From the sequence record SRR20825006_805: a DNA stretch of 39,722 nucleotides. The stretch is one strand, 5' to 3'. The notes under the pieces are model-generated. The model worked only from the letters and a program-made list of their open reading frames with translations, did no database searches and was not told where the DNA came from. Shown in pieces: positions 1,961 through 37,768 of the stretch. Numbering within the stretch: the first letter of the stretch is position 1; every line of letters begins with the position of its first letter. The position numbers were made by a program, and so were the translations under genes.

Positions 1961-3436
1961 ATGCAGGACACATCAGCGCGACGTCGGGGGAGACTTGTGA
2001 AGCGGAAATGGACAGCGATCATCGGCGACGCGATCCGAGATGGCTTCGGTCAAATTGGCATCGGGGCGCGAGATCGCTACACCACTGGCCTGAGCTCCAT
2101 TGTTCTGGAGCGTGACGTCGGGGGGACCCTCGCGCTGCTGCATTTGCGTGATCCATCGGGGACCAAGCTCGGGTTGTGTGAACTCACCGCGCCGATTCCC
2201 TGGATGTGGCCTCTCCACGACCGCCTTATTTATGGGACCTTCGATCATGACCTCGGCGACTTGATCGTCGGAGATCCTGCTTTCGACGAGTTCTTTCAAA
2301 TCGTGACAGAGGAACCACTGGGGTTGTTTCACGTCCTCTTTCGCGAGCGTCGCCTGGCGCTGCTCAGCCTGGTGCGGGAGCTTCGCCGCGAGAGCAAGCG
2401 TTTGCAGCTGGTCGTCGGTGGCGGGAAGGTCCACGCGACATTTTATATGGAGGACAAGAGGAAACTCAGTCCACATGCCGTATTCACGGCGCTCACCCAG
2501 TTTATGCAGCCTGCCCACGGGACCTTTTCCGATCGCTGGTCGTGTTTGCTCGATATCCTCACAGACCCTCGCGAGTCCGAGGGTTTCAAGGACGCCATCC
2601 TCGGCGCGCTTGCTCTCGAGCGCGCGCCTGTCCCTGACTCGTTTCGAGGTTGGTTGGAGGGCTCGATGTCTCCAGAGACGGAGTTGTCCGCCGCGCTTCA
2701 TGGCTTCTTCCCTGCGGGACGCACCTTTCATGTCATCCGCACACACGCGATGGCTGGCCACGAGCACCCACGCTTTCGGCAGATGGTCAGTTATTTCGCG
2801 AAGAGTTATCCCGCCAAGGCAACCTTCGACGAGGAGCTTCCGCTGGAGTTGAGGATCGAGGTCTTGAAGATGGCCTGGCAACAGCGCGTGGAGAAGACGC
2901 CAGGTTTGGAGAGGATGTTTTTGACGCTGTTGGACTCCAACGAGCGGTTGTGTGCGGCGTTGGTGCAGTGCATTCGAGAGTCGCTGACCGCGCGCCTCCA
3001 ACTCCCGGGAGAAAATTTGCGGGAGGTTCTCTTCTCGGCGCTGCCCGAGCTCCAGAAGAGGAGCGGCAAATTCTTGCGGCGAGAGCTCGTGGACGTGCTT
3101 TGTGCGCACGGCGAGGCGGAGGATACAGCGTCGATGCTCGCCGTACTCGAGCAACGTGTCGATGATAATAACGCGCTCCAGATCGTGCAGCGTCTGGGCG
3201 AGGTGGGAAACCTCTCGGCGCTCTCTCGCCTCGAGCAGCTCTCCATGCAGGAGCAACTCGGGCCGGTGAGCGAGGCGGCAGGGAGAGCGCACGCGGCGAT
3301 TCGCGCGCGTCACGCGGGCGCGACAGGCGGAGGGTTGACCCTCGCAGAACCTGGCGCAGGAGAGGAGGGGAGGCTCACGCTTGTCGCTGGAAACCAGGGC
3401 GGCATCTCGCTGGTGAAGGAAGACGAAGAGCCTTGA
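1961..3436 (+). CDS. HEAT-repeat-like hypothetical protein
   Basis: Helical C-terminus (LGEVGNLSALSRLEQL...AAGRAHAAIRAR) followed by a GGLTLAE..GRLTL tail. Start placed at ATG 1961 because the upstream part of the ORF overlaps oleC. Confidence 0.6.
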   Translation: MQDTSARRRGRLVKRKWTAIIGDAIRDGFGQIGIGARDRYTTGLSSIVLERDVGGTLALLHLRDPSGTKLGLCELTAPIPWMWPLHDRLIYGTFDHDLGDLIVGDPAFDEFFQIVTEEPLGLFHVLFRERRLALLSLVRELRRESKRLQLVVGGGKVHATFYMEDKRKLSPHAVFTALTQFMQPAHGTFSDRWSCLLDILTDPRESEGFKDAILGALALERAPVPDSFRGWLEGSMSPETELSAALHGFFPAGRTFHVIRTHAMAGHEHPRFRQMVSYFAKSYPAKATFDEELPLELRIEVLKMAWQQRVEKTPGLERMFLTLLDSNERLCAALVQCIRESLTARLQLPGENLREVLFSALPELQKRSGKFLRRELVDVLCAHGEAEDTASMLAVLEQRVDDNNALQIVQRLGEVGNLSALSRLEQLSMQEQLGPVSEAAGRAHAAIRARHAGATGGGLTLAEPGAGEEGRLTLVAGNQGGISLVKEDEEP

Positions 3437-3461
3437 TAAAAAAGAGATCGAGCAGGATCGG

Positions 3462-3490
3462 TTGCTAAGCAAGTCCGTGGGCCCTAGAAT
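3462..3490 (+). promoter_or_regulatory. candidate sigma70 promoter
   Basis: TTGCTA (3462-3467), 17-nt spacer, TAGAAT (3485-3490), intergenic and upstream of the CDS at 3624. Confidence 0.5.
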
Positions 3491-3623
3491 CAAAGAAGGT
3501 AGCGGGAAGATCCACGACTGCCGGCACGTTCGAGGCGAGTATGACCATTGTTCGGATGATTCATGCGCGCTCAGGCGTTCTCATCCATGGTAGATGGTCG
3601 AATGCCTCCACGAGAGTCTGAAA

Positions 3624-4803: not shown

Positions 4804-5565
4804 ATGCATGTGCTGGTGACGGGGGCTTCGAGTGGTATTGGCGAGGCCATGGCCCGTCACTGGGCAAGCCTTGGCGCGTCCTTGACCATCGCGGCGAGGC
4901 GCGAGGAGCGCTTGCGCGCGCTCGCCGAGGATCTCGATGTCGAGGTCTTCGTTCGCCCCACTGACCTGAGTGATCTGGAGCAGTGCGAGGCGCTTGTTCG
5001 GGAGTCGGTCGAGCAGCTCGGTCCGATCGATGTGCTGATCAACAACGCTGGCATCCAGTACGTCGAGGCCGCCGCTGGAGTCAGCCCCGAGCGCATCACC
5101 AGGTTGATGACGGTCGATTTGCTCGCGCCGCTTCATTTGATGCACTACGTGCTACAGGACATGCTCGAGCGCAAACAGGGCGCCATCGCCAACATCGCGA
5201 GCGTCGCGGGCATCGTGCACACGCCAGGGATGGCGCACTACAACAGCGCCAAGGCAGGTCTGGCGGCTGCATCCGAGAGCATGCGCGTCGAGCTCGCCAA
5301 CAGCGGCGTGCATATCCTGACCGTGTACCCTGGCCCCGTGCATTCTGATATGGAGGCCGCCGCCAGAGATCAGTTCGCGGACTCCTCGGCGGTCGAGCAT
5401 TTGCCGACCGGAAAACCTGGCGAGCTGGCGAAGCTCGTTGCCCTGGGGATCGAGAAGAAAAAAGCGCGTATCATTTACCCAAAGATCTACGCGTTCAACC
5501 GGAGCGCGCGAAACCTCTCGCAGTGGTTCACCGATCGCTTCGCGCCCCCTTTGAAGGACGAGTGA
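4804..5565 (+). CDS. short-chain dehydrogenase/reductase (SDR)
   Basis: TGASSGIG Rossmann motif, NNAG and catalytic YNSAK (YxxxK). Confidence 0.92.
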   Translation: MHVLVTGASSGIGEAMARHWASLGASLTIAARREERLRALAEDLDVEVFVRPTDLSDLEQCEALVRESVEQLGPIDVLINNAGIQYVEAAAGVSPERITRLMTVDLLAPLHLMHYVLQDMLERKQGAIANIASVAGIVHTPGMAHYNSAKAGLAAASESMRVELANSGVHILTVYPGPVHSDMEAAARDQFADSSAVEHLPTGKPGELAKLVALGIEKKKARIIYPKIYAFNRSARNLSQWFTDRFAPPLKDE

Positions 5566-5574
5566 TTTTCCCCT

Positions 5575-8500
5575 TCACGAGTCCAGATCATAGCGGTTGA
5601 TGTAGCGATAGAGCGTGCGCTCGCTCACGCCAAGAATCTCTGCCGCTGCTGCGTAGTCCTCCCCAGCTTCCTCCAACGCATCCAACACATCTTGCTTCTT
5701 CGCCTTGGGTTTTCGCCCGCGGCGAGAGGCGCGCTTCTTCTCCTTCGCTCGCCTCGCGGTTGTCGTGGTGTCGCTGCCCTCTGTTGTTGTGGCGTCGTCA
5801 TTCGTGCGGCTGCGTAGCTGGATCATCGTGGCGAGCTCGCGCTCGGTGATAAGATCCTCCTCACACATCACGCACGCCGCGCGCAGCGTGTTCTCGAGCT
5901 GGCGCACGTTACCTGGCCACTGACACTCGCCGAGCAGGTGCGCCGCCCCTGGCGAGAGCTTGAGCTCTCGCCCGATGGTCTCGGGCGCGATGCGCGCGAG
6001 GAGGCGATGCGCGATTAATGGGATATCCTCGCGACGCTCGCGCAACGCTGGGATCGTGACCGTGAACGCGGCGAGCCTGTAGAACAGATCCTCGCGAAAC
6101 GTCCCCTCGGTGATCATCGTGTCCAGGTTGCGGTTGGTCGCTGCCACGATACGCACATCGATCGGTTCGGCGCGTGTGGCGCCCACGGGGCGAACCTTGC
6201 GCTCCTGGAGCACACGCAACAGCTTGACCTGCATCGCCAGCGGCATCTCGCCAAGCTCGTCCAGAAAGATCGTCCCGCCATTGGCCGCCTTGAACAGCCC
6301 CTCCCGATCGCGGGTCGCGCCGGTGAAGGCCCCTTTGACGTGCCCGAACAACTCTGACTCGAAGAGGCTCTCCGGGATCGCGCCGCAGTTGACCGGGATA
6401 AAGGGGCCGGGGCTCCTGGGGCTGGCCGAGTGAATCGCGCTGGCGATCAACTCCTTGCCCACGCCCGATTCGCCGTGGATCACCACGGGGATATCACTGC
6501 GCGCGACGCGCTCGACGCGCTGGAGCAGCCGCTCCATCACCGAAGAGGTGTAGGCGATGTCCGGGAACGCAGCGCGGAGGCCGCTCACGCGGCTGTCGCG
6601 CTGGCGCTCGACCTCCTCACTCAACATCGCGACGCGCTCCTCCAGGCCCTCGAGCATCGCCTCTCGCTCGCCGAGCAGGGTGTCGAGCTCGCGCTTTGCT
6701 TCCTCCAGTTCCTTGACCGTGCCCTCGAGTTGTTCGAGGCGCCGAGTGTTGGTGATTCCGATGGCGAGCTGGTGTCCAAACGCCTCCATCATGCGCCGCG
6801 TTTCACCCTGGAAGATGCCAGGGTGAAAGCGATGATCGATATAGAGCGCGCCCAATAACCCGGAGGCATCCCGCACAGGGACACACAACACACTGGTCAG
6901 GTCGAGGTCGACGACCGAGAGCGCGGCGTTGAACCGCTCGTCCTCGCGGGCATTGACCGTGGCCACGGTGCGGCCCGTGCGCGCGGCCTCTTCCGCGATC
7001 GTGAGGCTGACCTTGAGGTGAGGTCTCGGGATAGGATCGCCGTCGATGTCCTGGCTGGCGGCGATCAGGAATCCGCCCACGCGTTGTCCGTCGCCCTCTT
7101 CCTCATCGAGGAGCAGGAAGCCACGCTCTGCGCCGCTCAAACTCAGCGCGATCTCGAGCGCGCGACGCCAGAGCTGCTCGGGATCACGCTGGTGGAGGAT
7201 GATCTCGTTTAGCGAGAGCATCCTGTAGAAGCGCTCGATGATTCCGCCTTCGCCCCCGTCTCCAGACGAAGGGGCACTCTGTTTCGTGCGGCGAGGCGAA
7301 CCTTCGCGCACGCCTCCTCGCCGCATCGGATCGGATGATACGAGCGCGGAGAGGTCGGGGTAGTTCGCGAAGAAGTCCTCTCGCAACTCCTTGCCAAGAC
7401 CGGATGCGACCGCGTTGCGCGCTTGTTGGTTGAGCGATGTGACCTCGTCGACGAGCTCGTCGAGTGATTCCTGCTGTACGCGCTCGAAGAGTACCGGGCT
7501 GTACTTGAGCACCAGGCTGTAGTTGGTGCTCTCGAGCGCGTGATGGAGCGCCTTGCGGAACTTCTCGATCCCCGTCATCACCTCCAGAGAGCCGCCTTCT
7601 CGCCAGCCGAGCATCGCCTCGAGGATGTCGTGATGATCCTCGAGCGCGGCGAGAGCGTGGGTATCGATGAGCGTCCTCGCCTCATCCAACTGCGTCGACG
7701 CCGTCGCGAGGTCATCGAGCGACAGGTGCGCCTCGGACATGGTCAGCAAGAGGTCCACGTGCGCCGCTGGTGGTGGCGCGCCTCCCATCGCGAAGCATTT
7801 CTCGAGCAACGAGATCGCCTCCTCGTGTTCGCCGCGCATCGCCGCGAGCGATGCCTGGTAGGAGCGCGTCATGAGCTCGTGGCTCTTCAAGTCGTGCGCC
7901 CTGGCGAGTTCGAGCGCGCGCTCGAGGAGCGCGCTCGCTTCATCGAAGCGCCCGAGTAAGACATCGATGGCGGCGCTGTTGCTCGACAACAGCAGCCGGG
8001 TAGTGGGGCGCGTGGTCTCTTGCGCGATGCGCATCCCGCGAGCGTAGTACTCGCGCGCCAACCCGAGCTTTCCCTGGCTGTGGTAAGCCGTGCCGACGTT
8101 GAGGAGATAGAGCGGGAGCTCCGCGTCTAGCCCCGCGCGCTCGATGTGCTCGAGCGCGCGCAGGTAGGCATCCGTGGACGCTTCGCGTTCGGCGTTGTAC
8201 TTGAGGCCGATGGCGATATAGGCGTTCGCGCGCGCTCGGAGCATCGCCGGGATCTCCTCGCTTTCGAGCACCGGCAGGAGCTTTTGGAGTGCGGTGACCG
8301 ACTTCATATCGCCGCGCAGCGCGCGCGCGCCATGTTTGATGATCGAGAGATGCGCGATATCACTGGTGAGCGCGACTCCTTTGTCCTCATCGCTCGCGCG
8401 CCCCGACACGCCGAGTTCGTCGAGGCCACGCTCCGCGTGCTCGATGGCGCCTTCGTAATCACCAGAGGAGAGCGTCAGCTGCGCGCGCCAGAGCGCGAGC

Positions 8501-10467
8501 TTGGTGAGCTGACTTCGCGATGGTTTATCCGCTGTCAGCGCGAGCGCGTCATCGCTCAAGAACGCCAGCCCCTGACGATGCAGTCCCCTTCCATGCTCTA
8601 ACCTCGCGCGCAGGAGCGCGATCTCGACGCGCTCATCGGTGTTCAGCTCATGCTGCGCGCTCGCGCTGGCGAGCGCGCTCGCCAGCAGGTCATGAGAGGT
8701 CGCATCGGCGCCAGCGCGCAAGGTCGCATCGAGCCAGAGCTCGAACGCCTCGATCGAAGGCGTGTCCTCGAGCACCGCGTCTCGAAGCTCGCATTGGATC
8801 AGCGCCTCCTGACATGCTCCCTGCGCCATGAGGGTCTTTATCTCTTCCAGGCTCGCGGGTTCGAGATCCGTCGAGGTCGTCGCGTGCGGGTTGTGGCGGA
8901 TGCCGAGCTCTTCCTCGAGCGCGCGAAGCATCTCGCCGATCGAGTGACCGTAACGGGCCAGCAGTGATTCCCAGCGCGCGAGCCCGATGTCGCGCAACTG
9001 CGCGCGCAGTGAGCGCGCGCGCCACCGCTGCCACTGGCGCGGATCGGGTTGCGCCAGGATCTGCTCGTCGATGTGGTGCGCCGAGAGGTTGAGCGTGCGA
9101 TCACGCCGCGTGGTGGCGATAAGAGAGAGCGGGAGCTGTTCGCGTCGCGCCGCCTGGAGCGCGTGCGAGAGCCAGGCGCGAACATCGGGGCTTGCCAGAT
9201 CGAGGTCATCCCAGAGCAGCGTGATCCCGGTCGATTGCGCGGACACGGCGCCCAGCAAGGCTCGCGTCAACAACTCGAAGGTGTGCAACTGGTCACCCTG
9301 GCCCAGCGTTGGAGGCGCAGCGCCAAGGCGCGAGATAAGATCGAGCACCACGGACCAGGGGCCTTCGTGCGCTGGCGCGGGCCCTGGCGAAAAGAAGGCC
9401 ACGGCGCGTTTGTCGAGGGCTTGCTCGAAGATCGCGATCGGCGCCTCGCCACGTAGCTCGAGGCGCGCGCACACCTGGCGAAGTGTCTCCGTCTTTCCAG
9501 CGCCTCGGATTCCCTTGAGGAGCAGGAATTTACCGTCCTGTGGGTCCCACGAGCGAACGATCTCCTCGACGCGCGCGCGCATCGAGGGGTCATCGAAGAA
9601 GAGCGGCGTCTCGTTCGCGCTGTCGTTATCCACCGCGAGCGCATCCAGGAGCTCCTGGATAAGCGGGCGAGTGTTCGGGTCCTTGCCGAGCATACGCCGG
9701 ACGATCCCGCCGAGCTTGCCCTTCAGGGATGCCGGGATTTTGGGAGCCTCCTCGCAGTGGGCCATGGCCCACTGCGTGAGGTTATCTCCTGTGAGCGGAT
9801 AGGCTCCCGAGACCATCCAGCAGATCAGGCAACCGAGCGCGTACATGTCCGCGGCGTGGCTCGGGGACGCGCCATTCCACAGCTCGGGCGCCATGCAAGG
9901 CGCGCTGCCGAGCACATGCCCCCGCTCGCTCTGGCGCATATCCAGCAGCGGAAAGTCGATGAGTGAGATCTCGTCCTCGGGCGTCACGAGCACGTTGTGA
10001 GGTTGGAGATCGCCGTGCACGAGCTGATCGTCGTGCAAGTCTCTGACGTGGAGCGCGATCGCCAGCGCGATCTCGCGCCAGCGCTCGCGCAGCAACTCGG
10101 TGGCCTCATCTGCCAGAGGTTTCCCTGGAATCCATGCCCTCGCGCTCAAAAACCACGCGCCCTCTTTCAGGCCAAGGTGTGCACGCGCTGGCTCGTCCAG
10201 CGCGTAAAACCAGTCCCATCGAGGGGAACCCTCCCGGCCAGGGAGTCTGGCGGCCAGGGCCAATTCGAGCGGCGAGGCGAAGCGCTCGGATTGTTTGCTC
10301 GCCTTGATAATCAGATCTCCCACGCGCCAGGTCTTCTCGGAGGGATGATCCCCGAGCTTCGCGGTTGCTGAGAGTTTGTCGGCCAAACGAGGCAGAGGAC
10401 GGGTCATGTCATTCGTCGGGTCAAGAGGCATGCGAAGTGAGGACAACATGTTCCTATTTTGTCGCAA
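5575..10467 (-). CDS. multidomain sigma54 enhancer-binding protein: kinase-like, P-loop NTPase, TPR, GAF, coiled coil, AAA+ and Fis-type HTH
   Basis: Kinase-like HGDLQPHN and GSAPCMAPE; Walker A GIRGAGKT and Walker B-like LLWDD; TPR-like helices; GAF ([15 protein letters not shown]); [23 protein letters not shown] and [30 protein letters not shown]. The start could be 10449, 10431 or 10407. Confidence 0.9.
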
Positions 10468-13168: not shown

Positions 13169-13224
13169 GCAAGAAATGAGGCGAGGCGGACCTGCACACA
13201 GGTCCGCCTCGCCTCATTTCTTGC
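13169..13224. terminator. perfect 26-bp hairpin, probable bidirectional terminator, containing one GGCGAG-N22-CTCGCC copy
   Basis: GCAAGAAATGAGGCGAGGCGGACCTG-CACA-CAGGTCCGCCTCGCCTCATTTCTTGC between convergent genes. Confidence 0.8.
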
Positions 13225-13239: not shown

Positions 13240-14709
13240 TCACTTGCTCTCGAAGAAGTCCAGCACGCGGCGCTTCGAGGACGCTGACCTGGCGCGGTTC
13301 TCTGCCCACTCACGCAGCGCTTTGATCTTCTCCTCGTAGGTCTGATACAGCGGCACCGTGTCTCGGATGGCGAACACGAGGTCATCCGGTGTGAGCTCTC
13401 GTCGCGCGGCAAAGGCCGAGTAGAGACCGCTGACGACGACCTGCTCGAGCTCGGAGCCCGAGAAGTTCTCGGTGCGTCTGGCCAACTCCTCGAGCACGTC
13501 TCCCTCCATCACACGGCGCCTCTTCTGGAGGTGAATCCGCAGGATCTCCTGACGATCCGAGTGGTCCGGGAGATCCACGAAGAAGATCTCGTCGAAGCGA
13601 CCCTTTCGCAAAAGCTCGGGCGGCAGATCCTCGACCTGGTTTGCCGTGGCCACCAGAAACACGGGCGCGCTCTTCTCCTGCAACCACGTGAGCAAGGAGC
13701 CGAGCACGCGCACGGCGCGCCCATCGTTATCGCGCGCGAACCCCTTCTCGATTTCGTCCATCCACAGCACGCACGGCGAGAGCGCCTCGCTCATCGAGAG
13801 CGCGTCGCGCAAGGTCTCATCGGGAGAGTTGCGACCATCGAACACGCGCCCCAGGTCGAGCCGCAACAATGGCAGGCCCCAGTAGCGTCCGATCGCCTTG
13901 GCTGAGAGGCTCTTCCCACAACCCTGGACACCGACCAGGAGCAACCCGCGTGGCGCGGGCAGTCCGAACGACCTGGCCTCCGATGAGAACGCGTCCTTGC
14001 GCTCGTCGAGCCAGTGCTTGAGCTCGGAGAGGCCGCCGATCTGATGCATTCCCTCTTTGAGCGGGTGGAACTCGAGCGCGTCGTTGTTCGAGATCAGGCG
14101 CTGCTTCTCTTCGAGCACGGAGGCTTCGAGATCGAATGGCGAGTTCCTGGTGAGCGCCTCTTCGAACTGCTGTCGCACGCGCACGAACGCGCGCTGTGCC
14201 TCCTTGAAGGTCAGGCCCATCGCGCCGGTCACGAGTGCTTCTGTGTCGATGCCATCGTCCTTGCCAAAGGACTCCTCGCACGCGGTGCGAATGGCCGCGC
14301 GACCTGGCAGCGGCATGACCTTGCGCGTGATCTCTTTCTGGAGCTCGAGGTGTGTGATGCGGTGAGGTCCGACAAAGACGAGCGTCTTGTGGGAGCCCGC
14401 GCAGATCGGCTCGAGCTCGCGCAATCTGCGACGCAATACCATATCCTCGAGCATGGGCGCGGCGTCCTTGAAGATAAAGATCCCCATCGCCTCGCTCTGC
14501 GCGATGGCGTCGAAAGCGTGCAGCAGGTTGGCCGATTCTTCCTGGCCATTGAACCCGCGCGTCGGGCTCCACTCCCAGACGGGGCGGTGGTCGGCTGCGG
14601 CGAGGCGGTGGAGAAGCTCCACGCACCTCGCCTCTTCGTGGGTTTCGATCTGGATGATCGAGTAGGGCGCGCGAAGCAGCGCGCGCAGGTCGCGTGTAAA
14701 GGATGACAT
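13240..14709 (-). CDS. AAA+ ATPase, Ycf46-like
   Basis: N-terminal IETHEE, Walker A GVQGCGKS, Walker B WMDEIEK, LLRKGRFDEIFFVDLP and C-terminal IKALREWA. Start placed at ATG 14709. Confidence 0.88.
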   Translation of the reverse strand: MSSFTRDLRALLRAPYSIIQIETHEEARCVELLHRLAAADHRPVWEWSPTRGFNGQEESANLLHAFDAIAQSEAMGIFIFKDAAPMLEDMVLRRRLRELEPICAGSHKTLVFVGPHRITHLELQKEITRKVMPLPGRAAIRTACEESFGKDDGIDTEALVTGAMGLTFKEAQRAFVRVRQQFEEALTRNSPFDLEASVLEEKQRLISNNDALEFHPLKEGMHQIGGLSELKHWLDERKDAFSSEARSFGLPAPRGLLLVGVQGCGKSLSAKAIGRYWGLPLLRLDLGRVFDGRNSPDETLRDALSMSEALSPCVLWMDEIEKGFARDNDGRAVRVLGSLLTWLQEKSAPVFLVATANQVEDLPPELLRKGRFDEIFFVDLPDHSDRQEILRIHLQKRRRVMEGDVLEELARRTENFSGSELEQVVVSGLYSAFAARRELTPDDLVFAIRDTVPLYQTYEEKIKALREWAENRARSASSKRRVLDFFESK

Positions 14710-14755
14710 CTCGCGAAGACCTCGAATGCTTTGAGTGCACGCGGCAAGAAATGCG

Positions 14756-14790: not shown

Positions 14791-14825
14791 TCGTAGTTCC
14801 AAATGCTTCTCAGCGGTAGGTTCGC

Positions 14826-22050: not shown

Positions 22051-23013
22051 TCACTGGGCGTTAAATATGGCGTTGGCGATGCTGCTCCATAGCGGGAGCA
22101 GCAACAGCGAGAGGATCGAGGACCAGACGATCGCTGCGCCCACGCGATCGGACCTCGCGCCCGCCTGGTGAGCCATCGAGAAGGTCGTGATCGCCACCGG
22201 CATCGAGGCGAGCACGACATGCAGCGCGGCGTACTCGCCGGAGATCCAGCCAAGGCGCCAGCCGAGCAGCATCACGCCGAGCATCAGCGCGGGCGTGATC
22301 GCCTGCCTTACGAGCAAGTGCCCCAAAAGCGGGAGATCGCGCGCGGCGAGTCGATCGCGTTGTCGATACAGGTAGAGTCCCAACAAAAACAGCGCCACGG
22401 GGGCTGCTGATGCGGCGAGGGGCTTGAGCCAGGTGATCGCCTCGCCGCGCGCTGCTTCGGGCAGCGCGCGCAACGCGAGCCCGACAGCGGGCGCCCAGAA
22501 GAGCGGTTGTTTGGCGACGCGCAGGATCAGCTCCCTGGCGCCCGGCTTATCCTCGCCGCCAGACCAGAGCGCGAGGACAGTGGGGCCTAACGTGACGGCG
22601 CCCGTGACGTGAATGGCGACGGCGAGCGCTGCGGCGCCGCCGATTTGCTCGCCGAAGGTGGCGCGCACGTAGGGGAGTCCTAAATAGGCGACGTTCCCGA
22701 AGACGACGACCAGCGAGAGGGTGCCCAGTGATTCTCGCCATGCTGGGATGATTCGCAGCGTGAGGAGCATGACCGCGAGGCAGATCGGCCAGGCCAGGTA
22801 GAAGAGCGGAGATGATGGGAGCGCGAGCCTCGCGTCGACCAACCCGAGCGCGATCAGCGCGGGGAAGCCGATGTTCAGGGCGTAGGTGTTGAGCGTGGTG
22901 ATCGCCTCTTCCGGGTCGCGAAATAGACCAGCCCTCCCGGCGATGGCGCCGAGGAATGCGGGGATAGCCAGTTGGAAGAGGCGCGGTGCGGTGTCGAGGG
23001 CTGCTTGCAGCAA
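22051..23013 (-). CDS. AEC (auxin efflux carrier) family transporter
   Basis: Multiple TM helices; motifs YALNIGFPAL, FGNVAYLGLP, APVALFLLG and SMPVAIT. TTG start 23013 chosen to avoid overlap with the upstream gene. Confidence 0.85.
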   Translation of the reverse strand: MLQAALDTAPRLFQLAIPAFLGAIAGRAGLFRDPEEAITTLNTYALNIGFPALIALGLVDARLALPSSPLFYLAWPICLAVMLLTLRIIPAWRESLGTLSLVVVFGNVAYLGLPYVRATFGEQIGGAAALAVAIHVTGAVTLGPTVLALWSGGEDKPGARELILRVAKQPLFWAPAVGLALRALPEAARGEAITWLKPLAASAAPVALFLLGLYLYRQRDRLAARDLPLLGHLLVRQAITPALMLGVMLLGWRLGWISGEYAALHVVLASMPVAITTFSMAHQAGARSDRVGAAIVWSSILSLLLLPLWSSIANAIFNAQ

Positions 23014-23035
23014 GGCTCTGAAGATCTCGAAAGGG

Positions 23036-23674: not shown

Positions 23675-23880
23675 GGATGACTCGGGGGCAAAGTTTGCGG
23701 CGAGGGAGGGGTGTAAGCGTGCTCCCCTCGCCGCACTTTTTTCAAGGTCAGTGACAATTTTTGGCCACTGCGACAAAAATGGCAGAGGAGTCCTGGGTAA
23801 AACAACAGATCTTTGAGAGCACTTCCACGTTAAGAACTCGCGCACCCGCATGGCACCGTCAATGAAATGACGGTCGTTAT

Positions 23881-25807: not shown

Positions 25808-25844
25808 GATCGTCCTGCAAAAAAGAGGATGCTGTGCAAAAAGT

Positions 25845-26801
25845 TTAGGCCCGCGCCGCGCTGAGCGCGGCCGCGCCGAGCATCCCGGCGATGTCCCCGA
25901 GCGTTGGCTCGGCCAACGCGAGGTCCTCGCGCGCGGCATGCAGAATCAATGGGGTCAATCGTGACAAGGTTTGCGCGCGAAAGCGACCGCAGTTCTCCCA
26001 GACGCCTCCACCCATCAGCAGCAAGGATGGGTTGAGCAGCGTGCACGCGTTGGCGATCACGAGCGCGAGCTTTTTCGAGGCATCTTCCCACATCGCTTCG
26101 AGCGCAGGCCACTGATCTGATGCCTGGTCTGCGGCGAGGAGGTCGACGTTTTTGCCGTCCTCGCCGCCAAGAATCGCGTCGCGCAGCTCCTGTGGTGCGT
26201 CGAGCAGTGCTTGTTTCGTGAGCGCTTCCAGGTGGATGCCGCCAGCGTAGGCTTCCAGGCAACCGTGTTCGCCACACCCGCAGATGCGGCCGCCAGGTTC
26301 GACCTTGGCGTGGCCGATTTCTCCGGCCTTTCCGCCACCTCCTTCGAGGAGCTTGTGACCAGCGATGATTCCTCCGCCGACGCCCGTGCCGACATACACG
26401 GCGAGGATGTCCGAGTGATTTTGTGCGGCGCCTGCTGTGTACTCGCCCCAGAGGAGGGCGTTGAGGTCATTGACCAACAACACGGGCGCCTCGACTGGCA
26501 AGGTCTCTTCCAAAACCTTCGCGAAGTCGAGGTTTCTCCAACCGAGGTTTGGCGCGTTGATGACGGTGCGACCGTCGAGCTCGAGCTGGGCGGCGATGCC
26601 GACGCCGACGGACTCGATGACGCTGGCGTCCTGCCAGAGCTCTTCCAGCAGTTCCTCGAGCAGGGCGCGCATGATGCCCGCGACGCCCGCCGGGGAGGTG
26701 TCATCGCGGAGCCTCGCGCGTCGTGTGGCCAACGTCGAGAAGGATGCATCGAAAGCGCAGATGCGGGCATTCGTCCCGCCGATATCATAGCCAATTCTCA
26801 A
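25845..26801 (-). CDS. ROK family sugar kinase (glucokinase-like)
   Basis: GYDIGGT, NDLNA, GTGVGGG, GEIGH and CGCGEHGCLE. TTG start after GAGG. Confidence 0.9.
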   Translation of the reverse strand: MRIGYDIGGTNARICAFDASFSTLATRRARLRDDTSPAGVAGIMRALLEELLEELWQDASVIESVGVGIAAQLELDGRTVINAPNLGWRNLDFAKVLEETLPVEAPVLLVNDLNALLWGEYTAGAAQNHSDILAVYVGTGVGGGIIAGHKLLEGGGGKAGEIGHAKVEPGGRICGCGEHGCLEAYAGGIHLEALTKQALLDAPQELRDAILGGEDGKNVDLLAADQASDQWPALEAMWEDASKKLALVIANACTLLNPSLLLMGGGVWENCGRFRAQTLSRLTPLILHAAREDLALAEPTLGDIAGMLGAAALSAARA

Positions 26802-26931
26802 GGTTGACCTCGTCGTGATGGAGCGGTTCTTGACTCGGGTATACCAGACGCATCGATCGGGGTGAAGAATCGTGGTATGACGCCGTGACAAGATGGCGAT
26901 GGTCGATGTTTCGAGCGAGACGAGGCGAGAG

Positions 26932-27807: not shown

Positions 27808-27979
27808 GGCGGAACTCTCGGCGTATCGCGCTTAACGCTGCGGCGAGCATCATGTATGCTCCCTGTGACTCGCCGCATGAAATTTAGGATGGGGGATGCC
27901 TGATAACCGAGTCGGTTGGACGGGGTCCTCCTTTCATGACTTTGTGGCAAGCTGACAAAACCAATAAAAGGAAAGAAAG

Positions 27980-28548: not shown

Positions 28549-29433
28549 GTGAAAGTGTTCAGAGAACAAGTCACAGCGAACATCATCGCGTCGACCGTGC
28601 TCGCGCTCGGCGCGGTGATGTTCTGGTCTCCTGACGTCCAGGCACAGGAAGAGGATCCCTTCGAGGACGAGTTTGGAGAGGTCTCCAAGCCCGCGCCCGA
28701 GGCGGAGCCCGAAGCCAAAGAGCCTGCGCGTCAAGAAGAGGCAAGCGTCGAGGAAGAGAGCGCCCCGCGCAAAAAGCTCGCTCCCGGTCGACTGCGCGTC
28801 GGTGGGCGGATCGGAGGCTCTTACAATCAGCTCTCTCGTCCGACTGATCCCGCTGGTGAGCCGACGCTGCTCTATGGGTCGGTGTTCAGCGGTCCAGGCT
28901 TTATGGTCGGCGCGCAGGCGAGTTTCCTGGCGACGAGCTCTGATTACCTGGACATCCTGCTCGAGCTCGGGTTGCTCTACGGGTTCTCACAGGGCACCGG
29001 TTATGCCGAGAGCATCGATGGGAGTCAGCGCCAGACGATCCAACTTCGCAGCCACGGCGTGCGCGTGCCGTTGCTCTTGCGCCTCGGTTCGCGCGGCGAG
29101 GGGCGCGTGCGTCTGTCGCTGCTCGCCGGACCTGAGTTGTTGTTGGGGCTCGCCAGTTCGGCGACCGTGACCAACGAGGGGATCGAGGATGAGCCGCAAC
29201 CGCTCTACACGAAACCTGTGACACACCTCGGGTTGAGCGCGGGGTTGGGGTTAAACTTCAACCTCGGGAAGGTTCGGGTGCCGCTCGACTTCAGGTTGAC
29301 CTGGGACCCGATGGTGCCAGGTTCCACGCGCGAGCGCTTCGAAGGTTTTCAGAGCCTCGATGATCCCGGCACCTACCAAGTCGGGTTCGACACCCAGTTG
29401 CTCTTTTTGCTGGGGGTAGAGTACGCGCTCTGA
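28549..29433 (+). CDS. putative outer-membrane beta-barrel protein, paralog of 26932..27807
   Basis: Signal peptide ending VQA, acidic linker, beta-strands and C-terminal LGVEYAL. Shares motifs with the upstream paralog. Confidence 0.7.
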   Translation: MKVFREQVTANIIASTVLALGAVMFWSPDVQAQEEDPFEDEFGEVSKPAPEAEPEAKEPARQEEASVEEESAPRKKLAPGRLRVGGRIGGSYNQLSRPTDPAGEPTLLYGSVFSGPGFMVGAQASFLATSSDYLDILLELGLLYGFSQGTGYAESIDGSQRQTIQLRSHGVRVPLLLRLGSRGEGRVRLSLLAGPELLLGLASSATVTNEGIEDEPQPLYTKPVTHLGLSAGLGLNFNLGKVRVPLDFRLTWDPMVPGSTRERFEGFQSLDDPGTYQVGFDTQLLFLLGVEYAL

Positions 29434-29490: not shown

Positions 29491-32037
29491 ATGAGTTCTG
29501 AGACGCACGAACGATTCGAAGATGCAAACGAGCAAGATGCTCTCGAGGGGAAGCGTGAGGATGGCATGGGGACGGATGGCGAGGTGTCCTCCGAGTTCCG
29601 CGTCAAACCTGGCACCCAGGGCGAACACCCCGAGTTCGAGTCCGATTTGTTCGAGCTCGAGATGCTCTCGCCGCCAGCCTCATCTTCATCCTCATCCTCG
29701 GATTCTGACGACCAGTCCGCGTCGCAAATCCTCGAAGAGGTGGTCTTGCCTGCTCCGGAAGGGAGCGATGGCGCGATCGAGACCTCGGAACCGATCGAGC
29801 CTTTTCAGCAGCTCCACGAGGAGTTCGGTTTTGATGGCGGCCTGAGCTCCAACGTTCGCAGCGAGGCGCTCGAAGAGGACGAGACCGACCCGGCGGCTTA
29901 CTTGCTCGGCTTGCTCGGTGAGGCGAGGCACAAGACTTCTGTCCCGCTCTCGCCGATCGCGAGCGAAGAGCTCGACGTGTTCGATTACTACATCAACCGC
30001 GAGCTCTCCTGGCTCGAGTTCAACGCGCGGGTGCTCGCTCAGGCCACCGACGAGAGCATCCCGGCGCTCGAGCGCCTCAAGTTCCTGTGTATCTCGAGCA
30101 CGAACCTCGACGAGTTCTTCGAGGTTCGCGTCGCCAGGTTGATGCAACACATTCGCCTGGACTCTCCGAGGATCGGCCCCGATGGGCTGACGCCACAGGA
30201 GCAGCTCGAGCGCATCTACGAGTTCACGCATCGTTTCGTGGACGAGCAGTACAAGATCCTCAATGACGTGCTCTTGCCAAAGCTCGCCGAAGAAGGCATC
30301 CGCTTCGTGCGCCGCACCGAGTGGAACGAGGCGCAGGCTGAATGGGTCGCAGAATACTTCCGTCAGGAGGTCCTACCCGTGCTCAGTCCGTTGGGGTTAG
30401 ATCCTGCGCACCCGTTCCCACGCATCCTCAACAAGAGCCTGAACTTTATCGTGTCGCTGTCTGGCGAGGACGCCTTCGGGCGCGCGAGCGGCATCGCCGT
30501 GGTGCAAGCGCCGCGCTCGCTCCCCAGGCTCATCAAGATGTCTCCTGATGTCATCGAGGGGCCGAACAATTTCGTGTTCCTCTCCTCGATCATCCACGCC
30601 CACGTGAACTCGCTCTTCCCGGGCATGACCGTCAATGGGTGTTATCAGTTCCGCGTGACGCGTAACGCCGAGTTGTTCGTGGACGAGGAGGACGTCGAGG
30701 ATCTGATGATCGCGCTCGAGGACGAGCTCTACGGTCGTCACTACGGCGCAGCGGTACGACTCGAGGTCGCGGATAACTGTCCGATGAGCGCCGCGAGGTT
30801 CCTGCTCGATCAGTTCGAACTCACCGAGGACAACCTCTATCAGGTCAACGGCCCGGTGAATCTGAACCGCCTGATGATGATTCCGAGCGAGGTGGACAGG
30901 CCAGATCTCAAGTTCCCTTCGTTTGTGCCACGCGTGGTGCATAGCTCGGATCGTGGAAAGGGGGACATCTTCGACCGGTTGCGCGAGGAGGATATCTTCC
31001 TCCACCACCCGTTCGAGTCCTTCTCCACGGTGATCGATTTCATCCGCCAGGCTTCGCAAGATCCTGACGTGCTCGCCATCAAGCAGACGGTGTATCGCAC
31101 GATGAGCGATTCTGCGATCGTGGATGCGTTGGTCGAGGCGGCGCGCAGCGGCAAGGAGGTCACCGCAGTGATCGAGCTGCGGGCGCGCTTTGACGAGGAG
31201 CGAAACATCCAGATCGCGAGCCGTTTGCAAGAGGCAGGCGCGCACGTGGTGTATGGCGTCGTCGGGTACAAGACACACGCCAAGATGTTGCTCGTGGTGC
31301 GCCGCGAGAGCGGCGGGCTAAAGCGTTACGTCCACCTCGGGACGGGCAATTATCACCCGCGCACCACGAAGCTCTACACGGACTTCGGGCTCCTCACTGG
31401 CGATGATGATCTCGGTGAGGATGTCCACAAGATGTTCCAGCAGCTCACGGGCTTGGGTAAGGTGCTCGAGCTCAAGAAGGCGTTGCAGTCGCCGTTCTCG
31501 TTGCACAGCGCGTTGCTCGCCAAGATCGATCGCGAGGCGAGGTTTGCCAGAGCTGGACGGTCCGCTTACATCGTCGCCAAGATGAACTCCTTGACCGAGG
31601 TCGAGGTGATCAAGGCGCTGTATATGGCGAGTCGCGCGGGCGTCAAAATCGATCTTATCATTCGCGGCATCTGCCGCCTGCGCCCTGGGATTCCCGGCAT
31701 CTCCGATAATATTCGGGTGCGCTCGATCGTAGGTCGTTTCCTCGAGCACCCGCGCGTCTACAGTTTCTACAACGATGGCGATCCCGAGCTTTACTGCTCG
31801 AGCGCCGACTGGATGACGCGCAACCTCGTGCGGCGCGTCGAGGCGGCCTTCCCGATCGAAGCGGCGCATCTGAAGCGACGTGTGATCCGCGAGGGCTTCG
31901 AGGTCTACCTTTTGGATAATCAGCAAGCCTGGGAGCTCAACGCCGACGCGACTTACACACGCGTCGAGCGCGCGCCGGGCGAGCCTGCGCGAAGCGCGCA
32001 GGGGATGTTGCTCGCAGAACTCACGGAAGGAGCTTGA
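29491..32037 (+). CDS. ppk1: polyphosphate kinase 1 with a long acidic N-terminal extension
   Basis: YINRELSWLEFNARVL, NLDEFFEVRVA, HHPFESF, ELRARFDEERNI, KTHAK, GTGNY, GRFLEH and SSADWMTRN. Confidence 0.95.
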   Translation: MSSETHERFEDANEQDALEGKREDGMGTDGEVSSEFRVKPGTQGEHPEFESDLFELEMLSPPASSSSSSSDSDDQSASQILEEVVLPAPEGSDGAIETSEPIEPFQQLHEEFGFDGGLSSNVRSEALEEDETDPAAYLLGLLGEARHKTSVPLSPIASEELDVFDYYINRELSWLEFNARVLAQATDESIPALERLKFLCISSTNLDEFFEVRVARLMQHIRLDSPRIGPDGLTPQEQLERIYEFTHRFVDEQYKILNDVLLPKLAEEGIRFVRRTEWNEAQAEWVAEYFRQEVLPVLSPLGLDPAHPFPRILNKSLNFIVSLSGEDAFGRASGIAVVQAPRSLPRLIKMSPDVIEGPNNFVFLSSIIHAHVNSLFPGMTVNGCYQFRVTRNAELFVDEEDVEDLMIALEDELYGRHYGAAVRLEVADNCPMSAARFLLDQFELTEDNLYQVNGPVNLNRLMMIPSEVDRPDLKFPSFVPRVVHSSDRGKGDIFDRLREEDIFLHHPFESFSTVIDFIRQASQDPDVLAIKQTVYRTMSDSAIVDALVEAARSGKEVTAVIELRARFDEERNIQIASRLQEAGAHVVYGVVGYKTHAKMLLVVRRESGGLKRYVHLGTGNYHPRTTKLYTDFGLLTGDDDLGEDVHKMFQQLTGLGKVLELKKALQSPFSLHSALLAKIDREARFARAGRSAYIVAKMNSLTEVEVIKALYMASRAGVKIDLIIRGICRLRPGIPGISDNIRVRSIVGRFLEHPRVYSFYNDGDPELYCSSADWMTRNLVRRVEAAFPIEAAHLKRRVIREGFEVYLLDNQQAWELNADATYTRVERAPGEPARSAQGMLLAELTEGA

Positions 32038-32258
32038 CGCCATTGGAACTCGAGCTAACAGTCAACGGCGAAGCGCGCCATGTGGCGCGAGAAGATGCGG
32101 CGAGCGTCGAGGCACTGCTTCACGCTCTCGCCGTCACACAACGCCGCGGAGTCGCCGTGGCGGTCAATGACGCCGTGATCCCGAAGAGCCGCTGGGCCGA
32201 ACATGCCCTCGAGGATGGGGACCGCGTCGAGATCATCCAGGCGACCCAGGGAGGGTAG
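32034..32258 (+). CDS. thiS: sulfur carrier protein ThiS
   Basis: VNGE, VAVAVN and [10 protein letters not shown] with C-terminal GG, upstream of thiG. Start is TTG 32034 or 32043. Confidence 0.9.
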
Positions 32259-33120: not shown

Positions 33121-33177
33121 AGCGGCGAGGCGCGGCGAGAAACGATGTTTCTCGCCGCGCCTCGCCGCTTATTTTTT
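33121..33177 (+). terminator. perfect 23-bp hairpin with a U-rich tail, containing two interleaved GGCGAG-N21-CTCGCC copies
   Basis: AGCGGCGAGGCGCGGCGAGAAAC-GAT-GTTTCTCGCCGCGCCTCGCCGCT followed by TATTTTTT. Confidence 0.75.
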
Positions 33178-35599: not shown

Positions 35600-35645
35600 A
35601 AGCGGCGAGAGGGTGGAAAAGATTCCGCTCTCTCGCCGCTTTTTT
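35600..35645 (+). terminator. + strand intrinsic terminator containing one GGCGAG-N22-CTCGCC copy
   Basis: 19-bp stem whose two G-U pairs form only in + strand RNA, followed by TTTTTT. Confidence 0.7.
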
Positions 35646-35675
35646 CGGGGCCTGTCTGTTCGATGGGGTCGTGAG

Positions 35676-37526
35676 TTATTCGACCGTCACGCTCTTGGCG
35701 AGGTTGCGAGGTTGGTCGACGTCGGTCCCCTTGAAGTCAGCGATGTGGTAGGCCAGCAATTGCGCCACCACCACCGTGAGCAAGGGCTGCACGAACTCGT
35801 GCGTGTCCGGGATCTCGATCAGCACGTCCGCGAACCGCGCGACCTGCTCGTCTCCTTCGGTGACTACACCGATCACGCGCCCTCCGCGTGCCTTGACCTC
35901 TTCGAGGTTCGAGAGTGACTTCTCGTAGACGCGATCTTTGGGCGCGAGCACCACCACGGGGAGCTGCTCGTCGATCAGCGCGATCGGGCCATGCTTCATC
36001 TCGCCCGATGCGTAACCCTCCGCGTGAATGTAGCTGATCTCCTTGAGCTTGAGCGCACCCTCGCACGCGATCGGGTGCTGGACGCCTCGCCCGAGGTAGA
36101 GGAACGAGTGCGTGTCCGAGAAGTCGCGCGCCAGCTCCGCGTAGGTCGACTCTTCCTTTAAGACCTCTTCCATCGCCGTGGGGACCGCGCGCAGAGCGGC
36201 GATCAGCTCGCTCGCGGTCTTGGCGTCGAGCGTCTCGCGGCGCCTGCCAAGCCAGATGGCGATCATGGCCACCGCCGAGAGCTGCGTGGAGAATGCCTTG
36301 GTCGATGCGACGCCGATTTCAGGGCCTGCGTGGGTGTAGAAGACGCCGTCCGATTCTCTGGCGATGGTCGCCTCGACGACGTTGCAGATGCTCAGGCAGC
36401 GCGCGCCTTCTTCCTTGGCCATGCGCATCGCCGCGAGCGTGTCGGCGGTCTCGCCAGACTGGCTGATCGCCACGCACAGCGTCTTGTCTGTGATCACCGG
36501 GTCGCGGTAGCGGAACTCGCTGGCGAGGTCGCACTCGACCGGAACGCGCGCGTAACGCTCGATCATGTACTTGGCGACCTGAGATGCATAAAAGCTCGTG
36601 CCGCAGGCCACGAAGACGATCTTCTCGACGTCGCGAAGCCACGCGTCGTCGATGTCGACCTCGGAGAGGATCACGTCGTCGTGTTCTGGAGTGATTCGGC
36701 CGCGCAGGGTGTCGACGATGCGCGCGGGTTGCTCGAAGATCTCCTTGAGCATGAAGTGCTTGTAGCCTTGCTTCTCGGCCGAGATCGGGTCCCAGTTGAT
36801 GCGCTTACAATCGCGCTCGATGCTGTTGCCCTCGGCGTCGAACAGCTTGACGCCGCTGCGCTCGAGGACCGCCGTCTCGCCATCCTCAAGGAAGATGAAC
36901 TCGCGCGTGTGCTTGAGCACGGCGGGGATATCCGAGGCGGCGAACATCTCGCCATCGCCAACGCCCAGCACCATCGGCGATGCGTTGCGCGCCACGACGA
37001 GCTGATCCGGGCGATCCGTCAACATGATCACGAGCGCGTAGGAACCTCTCACCCTGGCCAGCGCGCGCTGCGTCGCGGCGTGGAGGTCGCGCTCGCCACC
37101 CTCGGCCTCGGCGTCGGCCAGCTCGCGATCGATCAGATGCGCGATGACCTCGGTGTCCGTGGCGCTCTCGAAGCTGTGGCCGAGCGCGATGAGCTCTTGC
37201 TTGAGCTCGGCGTAGTTCTCGATGATGCCGTTGTGCGCGATGATGACGCGACCGGCGCGGTGAGGGTGCGCGTTCTCTTCGGTCGGGCGTCCATGGGTGG
37301 CCCAACGAGTGTGCCCGAGGCCAACGACGCCATCGAACCCTTCCTTATCGTAGGCGCGCTCCAGGTTGCGCAGCTTGCCCTCTGCTCGCACGGTGCAGAC
37401 CTCGCCGCCCTCCACGCCGATGGCAATCCCTGCCGAGTCGTACCCCCTGTATTCGAGGCGCCTGAGGCCCTCGAGCAAGATTTCGCTGCATTCGCGAAAG
37501 CCTATATAACCGACAATTCCGCACAT
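35676..37526 (-). CDS. glmS: glutamine--fructose-6-phosphate transaminase
   Basis: MCGIVG, LEYRGYDSAG, HTRWATHG, SQSGETADT, EGALKLKEISYIHAEGY and PRNLAKSVTVE. AAGGAG ribosome-binding site. Confidence 0.97.
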   Translation of the reverse strand: MCGIVGYIGFRECSEILLEGLRRLEYRGYDSAGIAIGVEGGEVCTVRAEGKLRNLERAYDKEGFDGVVGLGHTRWATHGRPTEENAHPHRAGRVIIAHNGIIENYAELKQELIALGHSFESATDTEVIAHLIDRELADAEAEGGERDLHAATQRALARVRGSYALVIMLTDRPDQLVVARNASPMVLGVGDGEMFAASDIPAVLKHTREFIFLEDGETAVLERSGVKLFDAEGNSIERDCKRINWDPISAEKQGYKHFMLKEIFEQPARIVDTLRGRITPEHDDVILSEVDIDDAWLRDVEKIVFVACGTSFYASQVAKYMIERYARVPVECDLASEFRYRDPVITDKTLCVAISQSGETADTLAAMRMAKEEGARCLSICNVVEATIARESDGVFYTHAGPEIGVASTKAFSTQLSAVAMIAIWLGRRRETLDAKTASELIAALRAVPTAMEEVLKEESTYAELARDFSDTHSFLYLGRGVQHPIACEGALKLKEISYIHAEGYASGEMKHGPIALIDEQLPVVVLAPKDRVYEKSLSNLEEVKARGGRVIGVVTEGDEQVARFADVLIEIPDTHEFVQPLLTVVVAQLLAYHIADFKGTDVDQPRNLAKSVTVE

Positions 37527-37768
37527 GTCTGGATCACTCCTTGTCTGGGATGCCCACCGATCGTGGTGGCAGCATCTGTCTTCTTCATCCTTCTTAACAC
37601 GGCTTGTGTGAAAACCACAAAGCCGCGGCGTGCGGCGAGAAAGCCCCTGCTCCTATCTCCCCTCGCCGCGGCTTTCGCACTTGACCTGTTGGCAAGTCGC
37701 CGCACATTTTCTGCTGCTGTCATCTCGAACAGCAGACCTCGCCATAGACTCGATCACGGACCTGAAAC

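Follow-up and report, generated by a model that had tools for sequence, protein, structure and literature searches.

The 39,722-nucleotide (nt) DNA stretch SRR20825006_805, referred to here as the window, carries a repeated gapped palindrome, GGCGAG-N21/22-CTCGCC, in which two inverted hexamers are held exactly 21 or 22 base pairs (bp) apart (the N21 and N22 forms). Judged from alignments with the closest genome, arms and gap length of this element are under strong constraint, and by synteny the copies in that genome are concentrated in a sector around the replication origin. The explanation that we favor, with a probability of about 45%, is that the elements are the sites of a two-fold-symmetric DNA-binding protein that organizes the origin domain, in the manner of ram/RacA or ricS/RicO.

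Two inverted hexamers at a fixed gap

A pattern search of the window returned 24 matches between positions 3110 and 37667. The original prediction had counted 23; the additional match stems from a nested pair (33124/33134). In a histogram of GGCGAG-to-CTCGCC spacings that covered gaps of 0 to 80 nt, N21 was found 15 times and N22 nine times, N20 and N23 were not found, and every other gap had a count of 0 or 1. The opposite order, CTCGCC..GGCGAG, gave a flat histogram.

Both hexamers are frequent words in this G+C-rich genome (73 GGCGAG and 86 CTCGCC in the window), and in phase 0 the element translates as GE..LA, which would suit an origin by chance or as a by-product of codon usage or of a protein motif. 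However, 100 dinucleotide-preserving shuffles of the window gave a mean of 0.08 pairs (maximum, 1), compared to the 24 observed, and 500 synonymous-codon shuffles of the called open reading frames (ORFs) gave a mean of 0.42 in-ORF pairs (maximum, 3), compared to 16 observed. Thus, the excess is due neither to codon usage nor to protein sequence, and the spike at N21 and N22 on which the original prediction rested was not reproduced by codon-preserving shuffling. Moreover, the same sites recur in an independent metagenome-assembled genome (MAG) and in a metagenome contig, and 13 sequencing runs contained DNA nearly identical to that of the window, at no fewer than half of the words sampled. The shuffles refute chance and by-product alike, and we give next to no credence to either of them or to an assembly artefact.

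The element is not described in the literature that we searched on palindromes, repeats of Bradymonadales, and origin-domain motifs, a search with subscription journals and supplements outside its scope; within these bounds, the claim that it is undescribed holds.

The unit is an obligate pair of symmetric half-sites

The polyphosphate kinase (PPK) of the window shares 93% identity with its counterpart in a Myxococcota MAG, G001 (L001), with the next relatives at 72% or less, and what is said below about whole genomes rests on such relatives of the window lineage. In the window plus 310 kb of G001, no other gapped hexamer palindrome was enriched at any gap.

A logo pooled from the window and stretches of G001 (65 to 139 elements, depending on the analysis) was two-fold symmetric, with a half-site consensus of T-G-C/A-GGCGAG-R-R-S-S that is about 13 bp long. 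On the spacer side of each hexamer, T accounted for only 2 to 9% at the four adjoining bases, whether the copy was intergenic or coding, and the central 13 to 14 bases of the spacer were without signal. At position -1, just outside the hexamer, C or A was found in 47 of 48 window arms, and G was found at position -2 in 37 of 48, in agreement with the 45 and 36 of 46 arms given before.

Variation in one arm is nearly independent of that in the other, with a weak association at position -1 only, and covarying arm variants were not enriched in the window or the 310 kb of G001. Since they were not, pairing between the arms is not the conserved property; it is the sequence of each arm that is constrained. 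Single 8-mers outside pairs are few, and the unit is an obligate pair, while GGCGAG as a single word is common everywhere in G001, including contigs free of elements. The signal acts on DNA and not on protein sequence; all three codon phases are used.

Arms and gap length are kept between relatives

Over 33 kb, the window was aligned with G001 contig C160 at 83.6% identity. Eighteen of the 20 testable window units were intact in C160, compared to an expected survival of about 5 to 12% at flank-like divergence. Two units were present in the window only (one ortholog has a mismatch in each arm, and the other has lost an arm in a 12-bp deletion), and one was present in C160 only. The two bases outside the hexamers, which had not been used for ascertainment, were identical at 69 of 72 positions, whereas identity was 78% in the flanks and 74% in the spacers. 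The gap was unchanged in all 18 orthologous pairs even though the spacers drift, just as had been claimed from the window itself, and none of the 18 pairs showed a sign of spacer inversion.

A metagenome contig with 94% protein identity to G001 (L126) also bears elements. All eight of its units stand, by coordinates, at the places of units of G001 contig C6, including the single one on the element-poor side, and this side is poor in both contigs. Element-bearing stretches of G001 had 80 exact pairs and 22 (N21) and 7 (N22) pairs with one mismatch, barely above the numbers at neighboring gaps, and element-free stretches (297 kb) had no excess at 0, 1, or 2 mismatches. Copies are perfect or absent, and degenerate ones are almost missing. 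Population differences in four runs included 0 in arms against ~0.4 expected, a comparison drawn from only 40 of 1,846 differences and so of no weight.

Elements formed in place

The MurF-Alr fusion gene of G001 contains four units, three of them inside Pfam domains of normal length. These three are alignable without insertion with four outgroup orthologues (52 to 54% identity), and the residues encoded by their spacers are homologous to those of the outgroups (e.g., GE-RFDGHAF-LA versus GE-HFDGHQF-VA). The arms were formed by substitutions, some of which changed amino acids, including V/I to L; one outgroup already has 6 + 5 arm matches, and at another site the outgroups match only one to four positions per arm. 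In the fourth unit, the left arm lies in a 9-nt lineage-specific insertion.

These alignments bear on the idea that the elements represent a tiny mobile sequence multiplied by a transposase, such as a miniature inverted-repeat transposable element (MITE), a repetitive extragenic palindrome (REP), or a REPIN. Short inverted termini, hundreds of copies, and intergenic enrichment would be in line with it, but the spacers are unrelated between copies, three of the four MurF-Alr copies displace no sequence and add no length, N22 units (34 or 38 bp) would break the reading frame if inserted, and orthologous sites are occupied in genomes that are ~84 to 85% identical. Furthermore, a Y1/RAYT transposase (PF01797) had no match in G001, an incomplete MAG. 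Mobility is already contradicted by the in-place evidence, and we consider it very improbable.

The signal is specific to one lineage

In G001, 446 units were found, compared to a control count of 1; 40 other relatives had 52 or fewer units each, with controls of up to 10. The 16-nt form was found 168 times in G001 and at most once in any other of the order's species-level genomes, 47 in number; the order includes Bradymonas and Lujinxingia. The signal is therefore lineage specific, being present in 1 of 48 species-level genomes. Holders of near-identical window DNA amounted to 19 rows from 15 studies in all, and the habitat-labelled runs with such DNA were marine. Since it is present in many marine data sets, material should be obtainable.

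The element field probably lies around the origin

The G001 sample comprised 62 contigs, 1.15 Mb, and 134 elements, and the distribution was bimodal: 43 of the 62 contigs had no elements, whereas C1, the first half of C6, C17, C33, C52, C59, and C160 had one per 1 to 2 kb. About half of the sampled 1.15 Mb is free of elements, and they are concentrated in an origin-proximal sector, so that the genome-wide spread asserted in the original prediction does not hold. A chimeric MAG as the cause of the patchiness was ruled out: the tetranucleotide correlation between element-rich and element-free contigs was 0.99, and GlmS, DnaA, and ParB have one orthologue each. Therefore, G001 is one genome. Foreign composition of the patches was ruled out as well, since patch genes that contain no element had a G+C content at third codon positions (GC3) of 0.771, compared to 0.774 elsewhere. 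Patch genes have unrelated functions, and a second arm family was not found in the element-free contigs of G001.

For chromosomal position, we used G019, a complete relative (5,045,683 bp; 50 to 75% protein identity), of which 1.36 Mb of DNA was compared, leaving out 4.64 to 4.84 Mb, 0.02 to 0.25 Mb, and most of the rest. GC skew becomes positive at ~4.5 Mb and negative again near 2.1 to 2.25 Mb, all five rRNA operons point away from the arc of 4.14 to 0.09 Mb, and parS words were found in the 1.36 Mb only at 4.545, 4.555, and 4.562 Mb. Skew switch, rRNA directions, and parS words together place the origin near 4.5 Mb.

Contigs of G001 were then placed on G019 by single-protein mapping. Element-bearing contigs mapped to 0.0 Mb (C223; DnaA query), 4.956 Mb (C82; window GlmS query), 4.552 Mb (C6; MurF-Alr query), and, with contig ORFs as queries, 4.586 Mb (C59), 4.509 Mb (C29), and 4.178 Mb (C17). 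Element-free contigs mapped to 2.247 Mb (C3; ParB query) and, again with contig ORFs, 2.622 Mb (C2), 2.826 Mb (C38), and 5.010 Mb (C8). The PPK query had no match in G019, C28 hit only a 34% paralogue, C14 hit two equal paralogues, and C52 and C1 gave paralogue-prone matches. When all ORFs of the 62 contigs were compared by tblastn with the 1.36 Mb of G019 (at least 50% identity and at least 60% cover), 14 of the 19 element-bearing contigs matched the sector of 3.9 to 5.04/0 to 0.27 Mb and none matched the 15 samples outside it, whereas 7 of the 43 element-free contigs matched the sector and 5 matched the outside samples (Fisher p = 2e-5). The five parS words of the G001 sample were all on the element-rich contig C6. 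By synteny, the element field would thus cover about a quarter of the chromosome around the origin, ~1.2 to 1.4 Mb, and be patchy within; the confinement to one macrodomain was found in this way rather than in a closed genome of the lineage. Such regional restriction argues for a role at the level of DNA or the chromosome, since a role of RNA or protein is not expected to track chromosome position.

The layout of the partition genes deserves mention in its own right. In G019, and likewise in G016, the sole ParB_N gene lies at the plus-to-minus skew switch, that is, on the terminus side, ~45% of the chromosome away from dnaA, and the parS words lie at the minus-to-plus switch, with dnaA ~0.5 Mb from that switch. 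This is unusual for ParABS (G019 coordinates of ParB, parS, and dnaA: 2.247 Mb, 4.545 to 4.562 Mb, and 491 bp). Convincing clusters of DnaA boxes were not found near dnaA or parB. In two relatives, the murF-alr fusion gene has a parS-like word within it or at its end (L130 of G004; position 4554572 of G019), and centromere sites of the order appear to be tied to this gene. Three of the five parS words of C6 (45.6, 47.7, and 53.3 kb) fall into its 38- to 58-kb part, which is poor in gapped palindromes, with none from 36.6 to 53.8 kb; there may be mutual exclusion between ParB zone and element field, or this may be chance. Coding strands of the clade are C-rich, and local GC skew opposes the gene strand, on top of the replication skew (window and G019 samples).

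Placement relative to genes, and folding

Sixteen of the window units are inside ORFs and eight are between them, and Pfam matches put elements firmly within short-chain dehydrogenase, kinase/sigma-54 activator, Mem_trans, ROK kinase, and beta-barrel domains or genes. In the 1.15 Mb of G001, 90 of the 134 copies are in ORFs and 44 (33%) are in the 11% of the DNA outside stop-to-stop ORFs. N21 favors phase 0 (GE..LA), as seen in 40 of the 54 coding N21 copies of G001, and among its intergenic copies N22 is more common than N21 (27 versus 17). The density in G001 falls about tenfold, from 2.4 per 10 kb in genes with a GC3 of 0.65 to 0.70 to 0.2 to 0.3 above a GC3 of 0.80.

The elements might act as folded single strands, with an 8- to 9-bp G+C stem closing the 21/22-nt loop and a role in RNA, be it as terminator, stabilizer, or processing site, or in single-stranded DNA at the replication fork. 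A minority are true hairpins, some of them with T-runs (13180, 23699, 33124/33134, and 35604), the element at 23699 shows compensatory changes relative to its ortholog, and complementarity just inside and outside the arms modestly exceeds expectation. Against shuffled spacers, however, the spacers of 65 elements had a median fold z of -0.3, and only 14% had a z below -2, so that the earlier statement that spacers mostly do not self-pair stands. In G001, a T-run follows 7 of the 42 intergenic copies and 4 of the 90 coding ones, and convergent genes flank only 4 of the 42 intergenic copies; a G+C hairpin plus T-run at a gene end, as in an intrinsic terminator, is a minority feature. Covarying stem variants were not found, Rfam 15 at the gathering score had 0 matches in the window, and an RNA role would explain neither the confinement to one sector nor a loop length fixed within one base. 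Folding as the common function is, to our mind, a long shot.

What might read the sites

Constrained sequence, two-fold symmetry, a ruler of one-bp precision, indifference to frame and strand, and confinement to a sector argue for symmetric recognition of duplex DNA with a chromosome-level purpose. Each site is bipartite, with two inverted half-sites of ~13 bp whose hexamer cores are exactly 21 or 22 bp apart. Sites were born in place by point substitutions within one young marine lineage, and purifying selection keeps them letter-perfect within and between genes. By synteny, the few hundred copies, in patches of about one per 1 to 2 kb, are concentrated in that quarter of the chromosome which has the parS cluster and the origin. 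According to the model that we favor, a lineage-specific dimer, or dimer of dimers, would dock on both half-sites, and the docked protein would mark, compact, bridge, or anchor the origin domain, forming a dense site field alongside the ordinary parS/ParB centromere. The original prediction had a dimer or two-site enzyme reading the pairs along the chromosome; the DNA-level signal, the constraint on arm sequence, the symmetry, and the fixed gap all fit such a reader, but the spread along the chromosome was not supported. A bolder and more doubtful reading is that of a new chromosome-domain code, with hundreds of split sites selected in the origin quarter and read by a symmetric protein as a "centromere field" beside parS.

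Several points weigh against an origin-domain organizer. A reader protein was not identified, and the signal is not tracked by any candidate. The ~450 copies, which are mostly intragenic, are 20 to 50 times the number of any known macrodomain motif. Known motifs of this kind have tens of sites and known architectural sites tolerate mismatches; here, 446 units were found in G001, and copies that are perfect or absent would be more usual for enzymes or uptake receptors. Placement at the origin relies on synteny between a fragmented MAG and a relative of 50 to 75% identity that was compared in part. The seven element-free contigs also in the sector include C8 (30 kb), which adjoins glmS in two relatives, and patchiness inside the sector is beyond an origin-domain model. 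Finally, such a model does not account for how selection could rapidly build hundreds of sites of 12 to 18 nt with amino-acid changes in essential enzymes.

One window gene looked like a possible reader. The ORF at 3594-4769 (+; 391 amino acids [aa]) has a weak MarR-like winged-helix N terminus (E = 0.007, below the cut-off), followed by a low-complexity stretch and, at the C terminus, a membrane helix, an architecture that suggests a DNA-membrane tether. Its homologues (44 to 63% identity) include Bradymonas and Lujinxingia records, and it was rejected as the reader because it is conserved across the order and so not lineage specific.

A two-site DNA-modifying or restriction-type enzyme, such as an adenine methyltransferase (type IIG/IIL, type III, or BREX-like) that reads GGCGAG, could also have such a target. 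In that case, two arms head to head would form an epigenetic unit with one marked arm per daughter duplex after replication, and a reader near the origin might use the mark, e.g., for sequestration or timing. The fifth base of this asymmetric 6-mer is A, and type IIL and BREX sites are usually of asymmetric form with an adenine, like GGCGAG; some enzymes of the MmeI family cut 20 to 21 nt away, near the gap length. The perfect-or-absent pattern suits enzyme specificity as well, and a 2.5-kb contig of G001, C224, has a 5'-truncated Eco57I/N6_Mtase/TaqI_C ORF that is type IIG-like (L084 2-1930). However, the match of the methyltransferase to the MmeI model is weak (30 to 33 bits), and this model also matches 7 of 14 control genomes. 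Restriction targets are usually avoided or neutral and not enriched as fixed-gap pairs, lone GGCGAG words are abundant even on element-free contigs, and a modification system gives no cause for restriction to the origin sector. We regard an enzyme target as unlikely, if the least so among the rivals considered here.

Only slightly less likely, in our estimate, is a self-propagating (drive) signal, e.g., an uptake or recombination signal with a dimeric receptor, or biased gene conversion, which would accumulate where constraint is weak, as the DNA uptake sequence (DUS) and the uptake signal sequence (USS) do. The in-place origin in coding DNA, amino-acid changes included, the 33% of copies in the 11% of DNA outside ORFs, the roughly tenfold fall in density from low-GC3 to high-GC3 genes, the positions kept between species, and the scarcity of degenerate copies are all in line with it: in-place coding origin, a bias to weakly constrained DNA, conserved positions, and few degenerate copies have all been described for DUS/USS. 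But uptake signals have a fairly even distribution in the core genome, whereas most of the genome is element-free here and has no excess there even at one to two mismatches, and the unit is an obligate pair with few lone 8-mers. Turnover since the species split has been very low (3 differences among ~21 sites), and there was no gain on the element-poor side of C6/L126; such low turnover does not fit an ongoing drive. The remaining probability is reserved for mechanisms that we have not thought of.

An origin-domain function would matter because the marking and folding of origin regions in bacteria is largely unknown beyond a few model species, in which the known marks amount to a handful of sites. 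Here, ~450 letter-perfect bipartite sites were built in a young lineage, even by changing amino acids in essential enzymes, and element-free close relatives provide natural controls. Were the field indeed a new chromosome-domain code, its acquisition would be recent enough to trace its birth site by site. If a reader protein exists, the system would be a tractable one in which to study the birth of a macrodomain code, the extent to which signals at the DNA level can override protein coding, and the reading of a fixed 21/22-bp ruler.

Individual elements of the window

The units of the window are listed in Table 1.

Table 1. Gapped palindromes of the window, their settings, and their state in the G001 ortholog where available
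Form	Position	Strand	Setting and comparison
N21	3110..3142	.	Hypothetical ORF 1973-3580, strand uncertain; intact in C160
N22	3197..3230	.	Hypothetical ORF 1973-3580; intact in C160
N22	4893..4926	.	Short-chain dehydrogenase gene 4804-5565(+), in adh_short domain; intact in C160, spacer 20/22 identical
N21	5721..5753	.	Kinase/sigma-54 activator gene 5575-10467(-), linker preceding C-terminal helix-turn-helix
N21	7290..7322	.	Kinase/sigma-54 activator gene 5575-10467(-); arms kept, spacer 9/21 identical to ortholog
N22	7648..7681	.	Kinase/sigma-54 activator gene 5575-10467(-)
N21	10271..10303	.	Close to 5' end of kinase/sigma-54 activator gene 5575-10467(-)
N22	13180..13213	.	Intergenic, convergent genes; entire unit a perfect hairpin, fold z -5.7
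N22	14599..14632	.	5' part of AAA ATPase gene 13240-14802(-); ortholog spacer identical
N21	20938..20970	.	Ser/Thr kinase gene 19779-21824(-); arms conserved amid diverged sequence, spacer 8/21
N21	22207..22239	.	Mem_trans transporter gene 22051-23193(-), phase 0 (GE..LA)
N21	22414..22446	.	Mem_trans gene 22051-23193(-); 207 nt after 22207 element
N21	22621..22653	.	Mem_trans gene 22051-23193(-); window only, G001 ortholog with one mismatch per arm
N22	23699..23732	.	Intergenic, followed by T-run; stem extension differs from ortholog yet pairs (compensatory changes)
N21	25421..25453	.	NUDIX/metallo-beta-lactamase gene 24212-25939(-); window only, left arm in G001 12-bp deletion
N21	26133..26165	.	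ROK-family kinase gene 25845-26891(-)
N21	27842..27874	.	Intergenic, upstream of cyclophilin gene; element and flanks 100% identical in G001
N21	29095..29127	.	Outer-membrane beta-barrel gene 28549-29433(+)
N21	29922..29954	.	N-terminal extension of PPK ORF 29491-32037(+); may precede true start
N22	32099..32132	.	Intergenic, after ppk; identical in G001
N21	33124..33156	.	Outer-left/inner-right pairing of nested double unit after thiG
N21	33134..33166	.	Inner-left/outer-right pairing of nested double unit after thiG; followed by T-run
N22	35604..35637	.	Intergenic; full hairpin, z -5.1, T-run on + strand
N22	37634..37667	.	Divergent intergenic region between glmS (start 37526, -) and ABC transporter gene (37769, +)

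The three elements of the Mem_trans gene (22207, 22414, and 22621) are exactly 207 nt apart; a 207-nt repeat behind this equal spacing was rejected, the 207-nt units being only ~33% identical to one another. The 27842 element is 100% identical to G001, as are no fewer than 60 nt of surrounding sequence, compared to a regional average of 84%; there was no Rfam match. With the cyclophilin gene (27980-28546) downstream, this may be a regulatory RNA or a promoter. The PPK ORF has an N-terminal extension of ~160 aa (29491-29990) that is matched in the closest relative only, and in other taxa the alignment begins at residue ~141 to 189. The true start of the kinase may thus be downstream of the 29922 element.

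Comparison with known systems

Like the element described here, REPs and REPINs are short palindromic units present in hundreds of copies. REPs carry GTAG/CGTC tags (PMC3733652). They differ in being extragenic and so tagged, in having a common inner sequence, and in their link to a RAYT gene, none of which holds here: most copies are within ORFs (16 of 24 in the window, 90 of 134 in G001), and the PF01797 search of the incomplete MAG G001 revealed no RAYT transposase.

DUS (Neisseria) and USS (Pasteurellaceae) are long exact words that occur hundreds to thousands of times, with inverted pairs doubling as terminators. The likeness is considerable: in-place origin, intragenic copies, a preference for weakly constrained or intergenic DNA, and conservation at orthologous sites are found in both cases. 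However, DUS and USS are single asymmetric words over the whole core genome, whereas the element is an obligate fixed-gap pair that most of the genome lacks; 43 of 62 contigs are element-free, and hence the spread is not even.

The parS site has a 16-bp palindromic consensus of the TGTTNCACGTGAAACA type. It resembles the element as an origin-proximal palindromic site, which nucleates the partition complex. The arms are unrelated to parS, and true parS words occur separately; the gapped palindrome comes in addition to them, is ~100 times more numerous, and is spread over ~1.2 to 1.4 Mb.

A closer functional parallel may be found among macrodomain motifs. The matS motif of enterobacteria and vibrios is a contiguous 13-bp palindrome, for the most part tolerant of degeneracy, with ~23 sites, and ram is a 14-bp inverted repeat. 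The matS motif is confined to one macrodomain and bound by a dimer, MatP, that is able to bridge DNA (PMC11564523). The matS/MatP system is like the element in being palindromic and confined to a macrodomain, and different in marking the terminus and not the origin. For ram/RacA of Bacillus subtilis and ricS/RicO of Staphylococcus aureus, two sources describe origin-proximal motifs that are separate from parS and have a dedicated DNA-binding protein, which organizes or anchors the origin region (PMC6593407; 10.64898/2026.03.06.710092). According to the preprint, ricS is an 18-bp non-palindrome with nine sites in ~700 kb, ~25% of the genome, around oriC (10.64898/2026.03.06.710092). In both systems, the motifs lie in the origin-proximal quarter to third, and the sector found here is of similar size. 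The known sets consist of 9 to ~25 single short motifs, whereas ~450 split fixed-gap pairs, letter-perfect and two thirds of them in genes, were found here. By its inferred function, the element would be classed as a macrodomain-specific DNA motif, of a form that appears to be without described counterpart.

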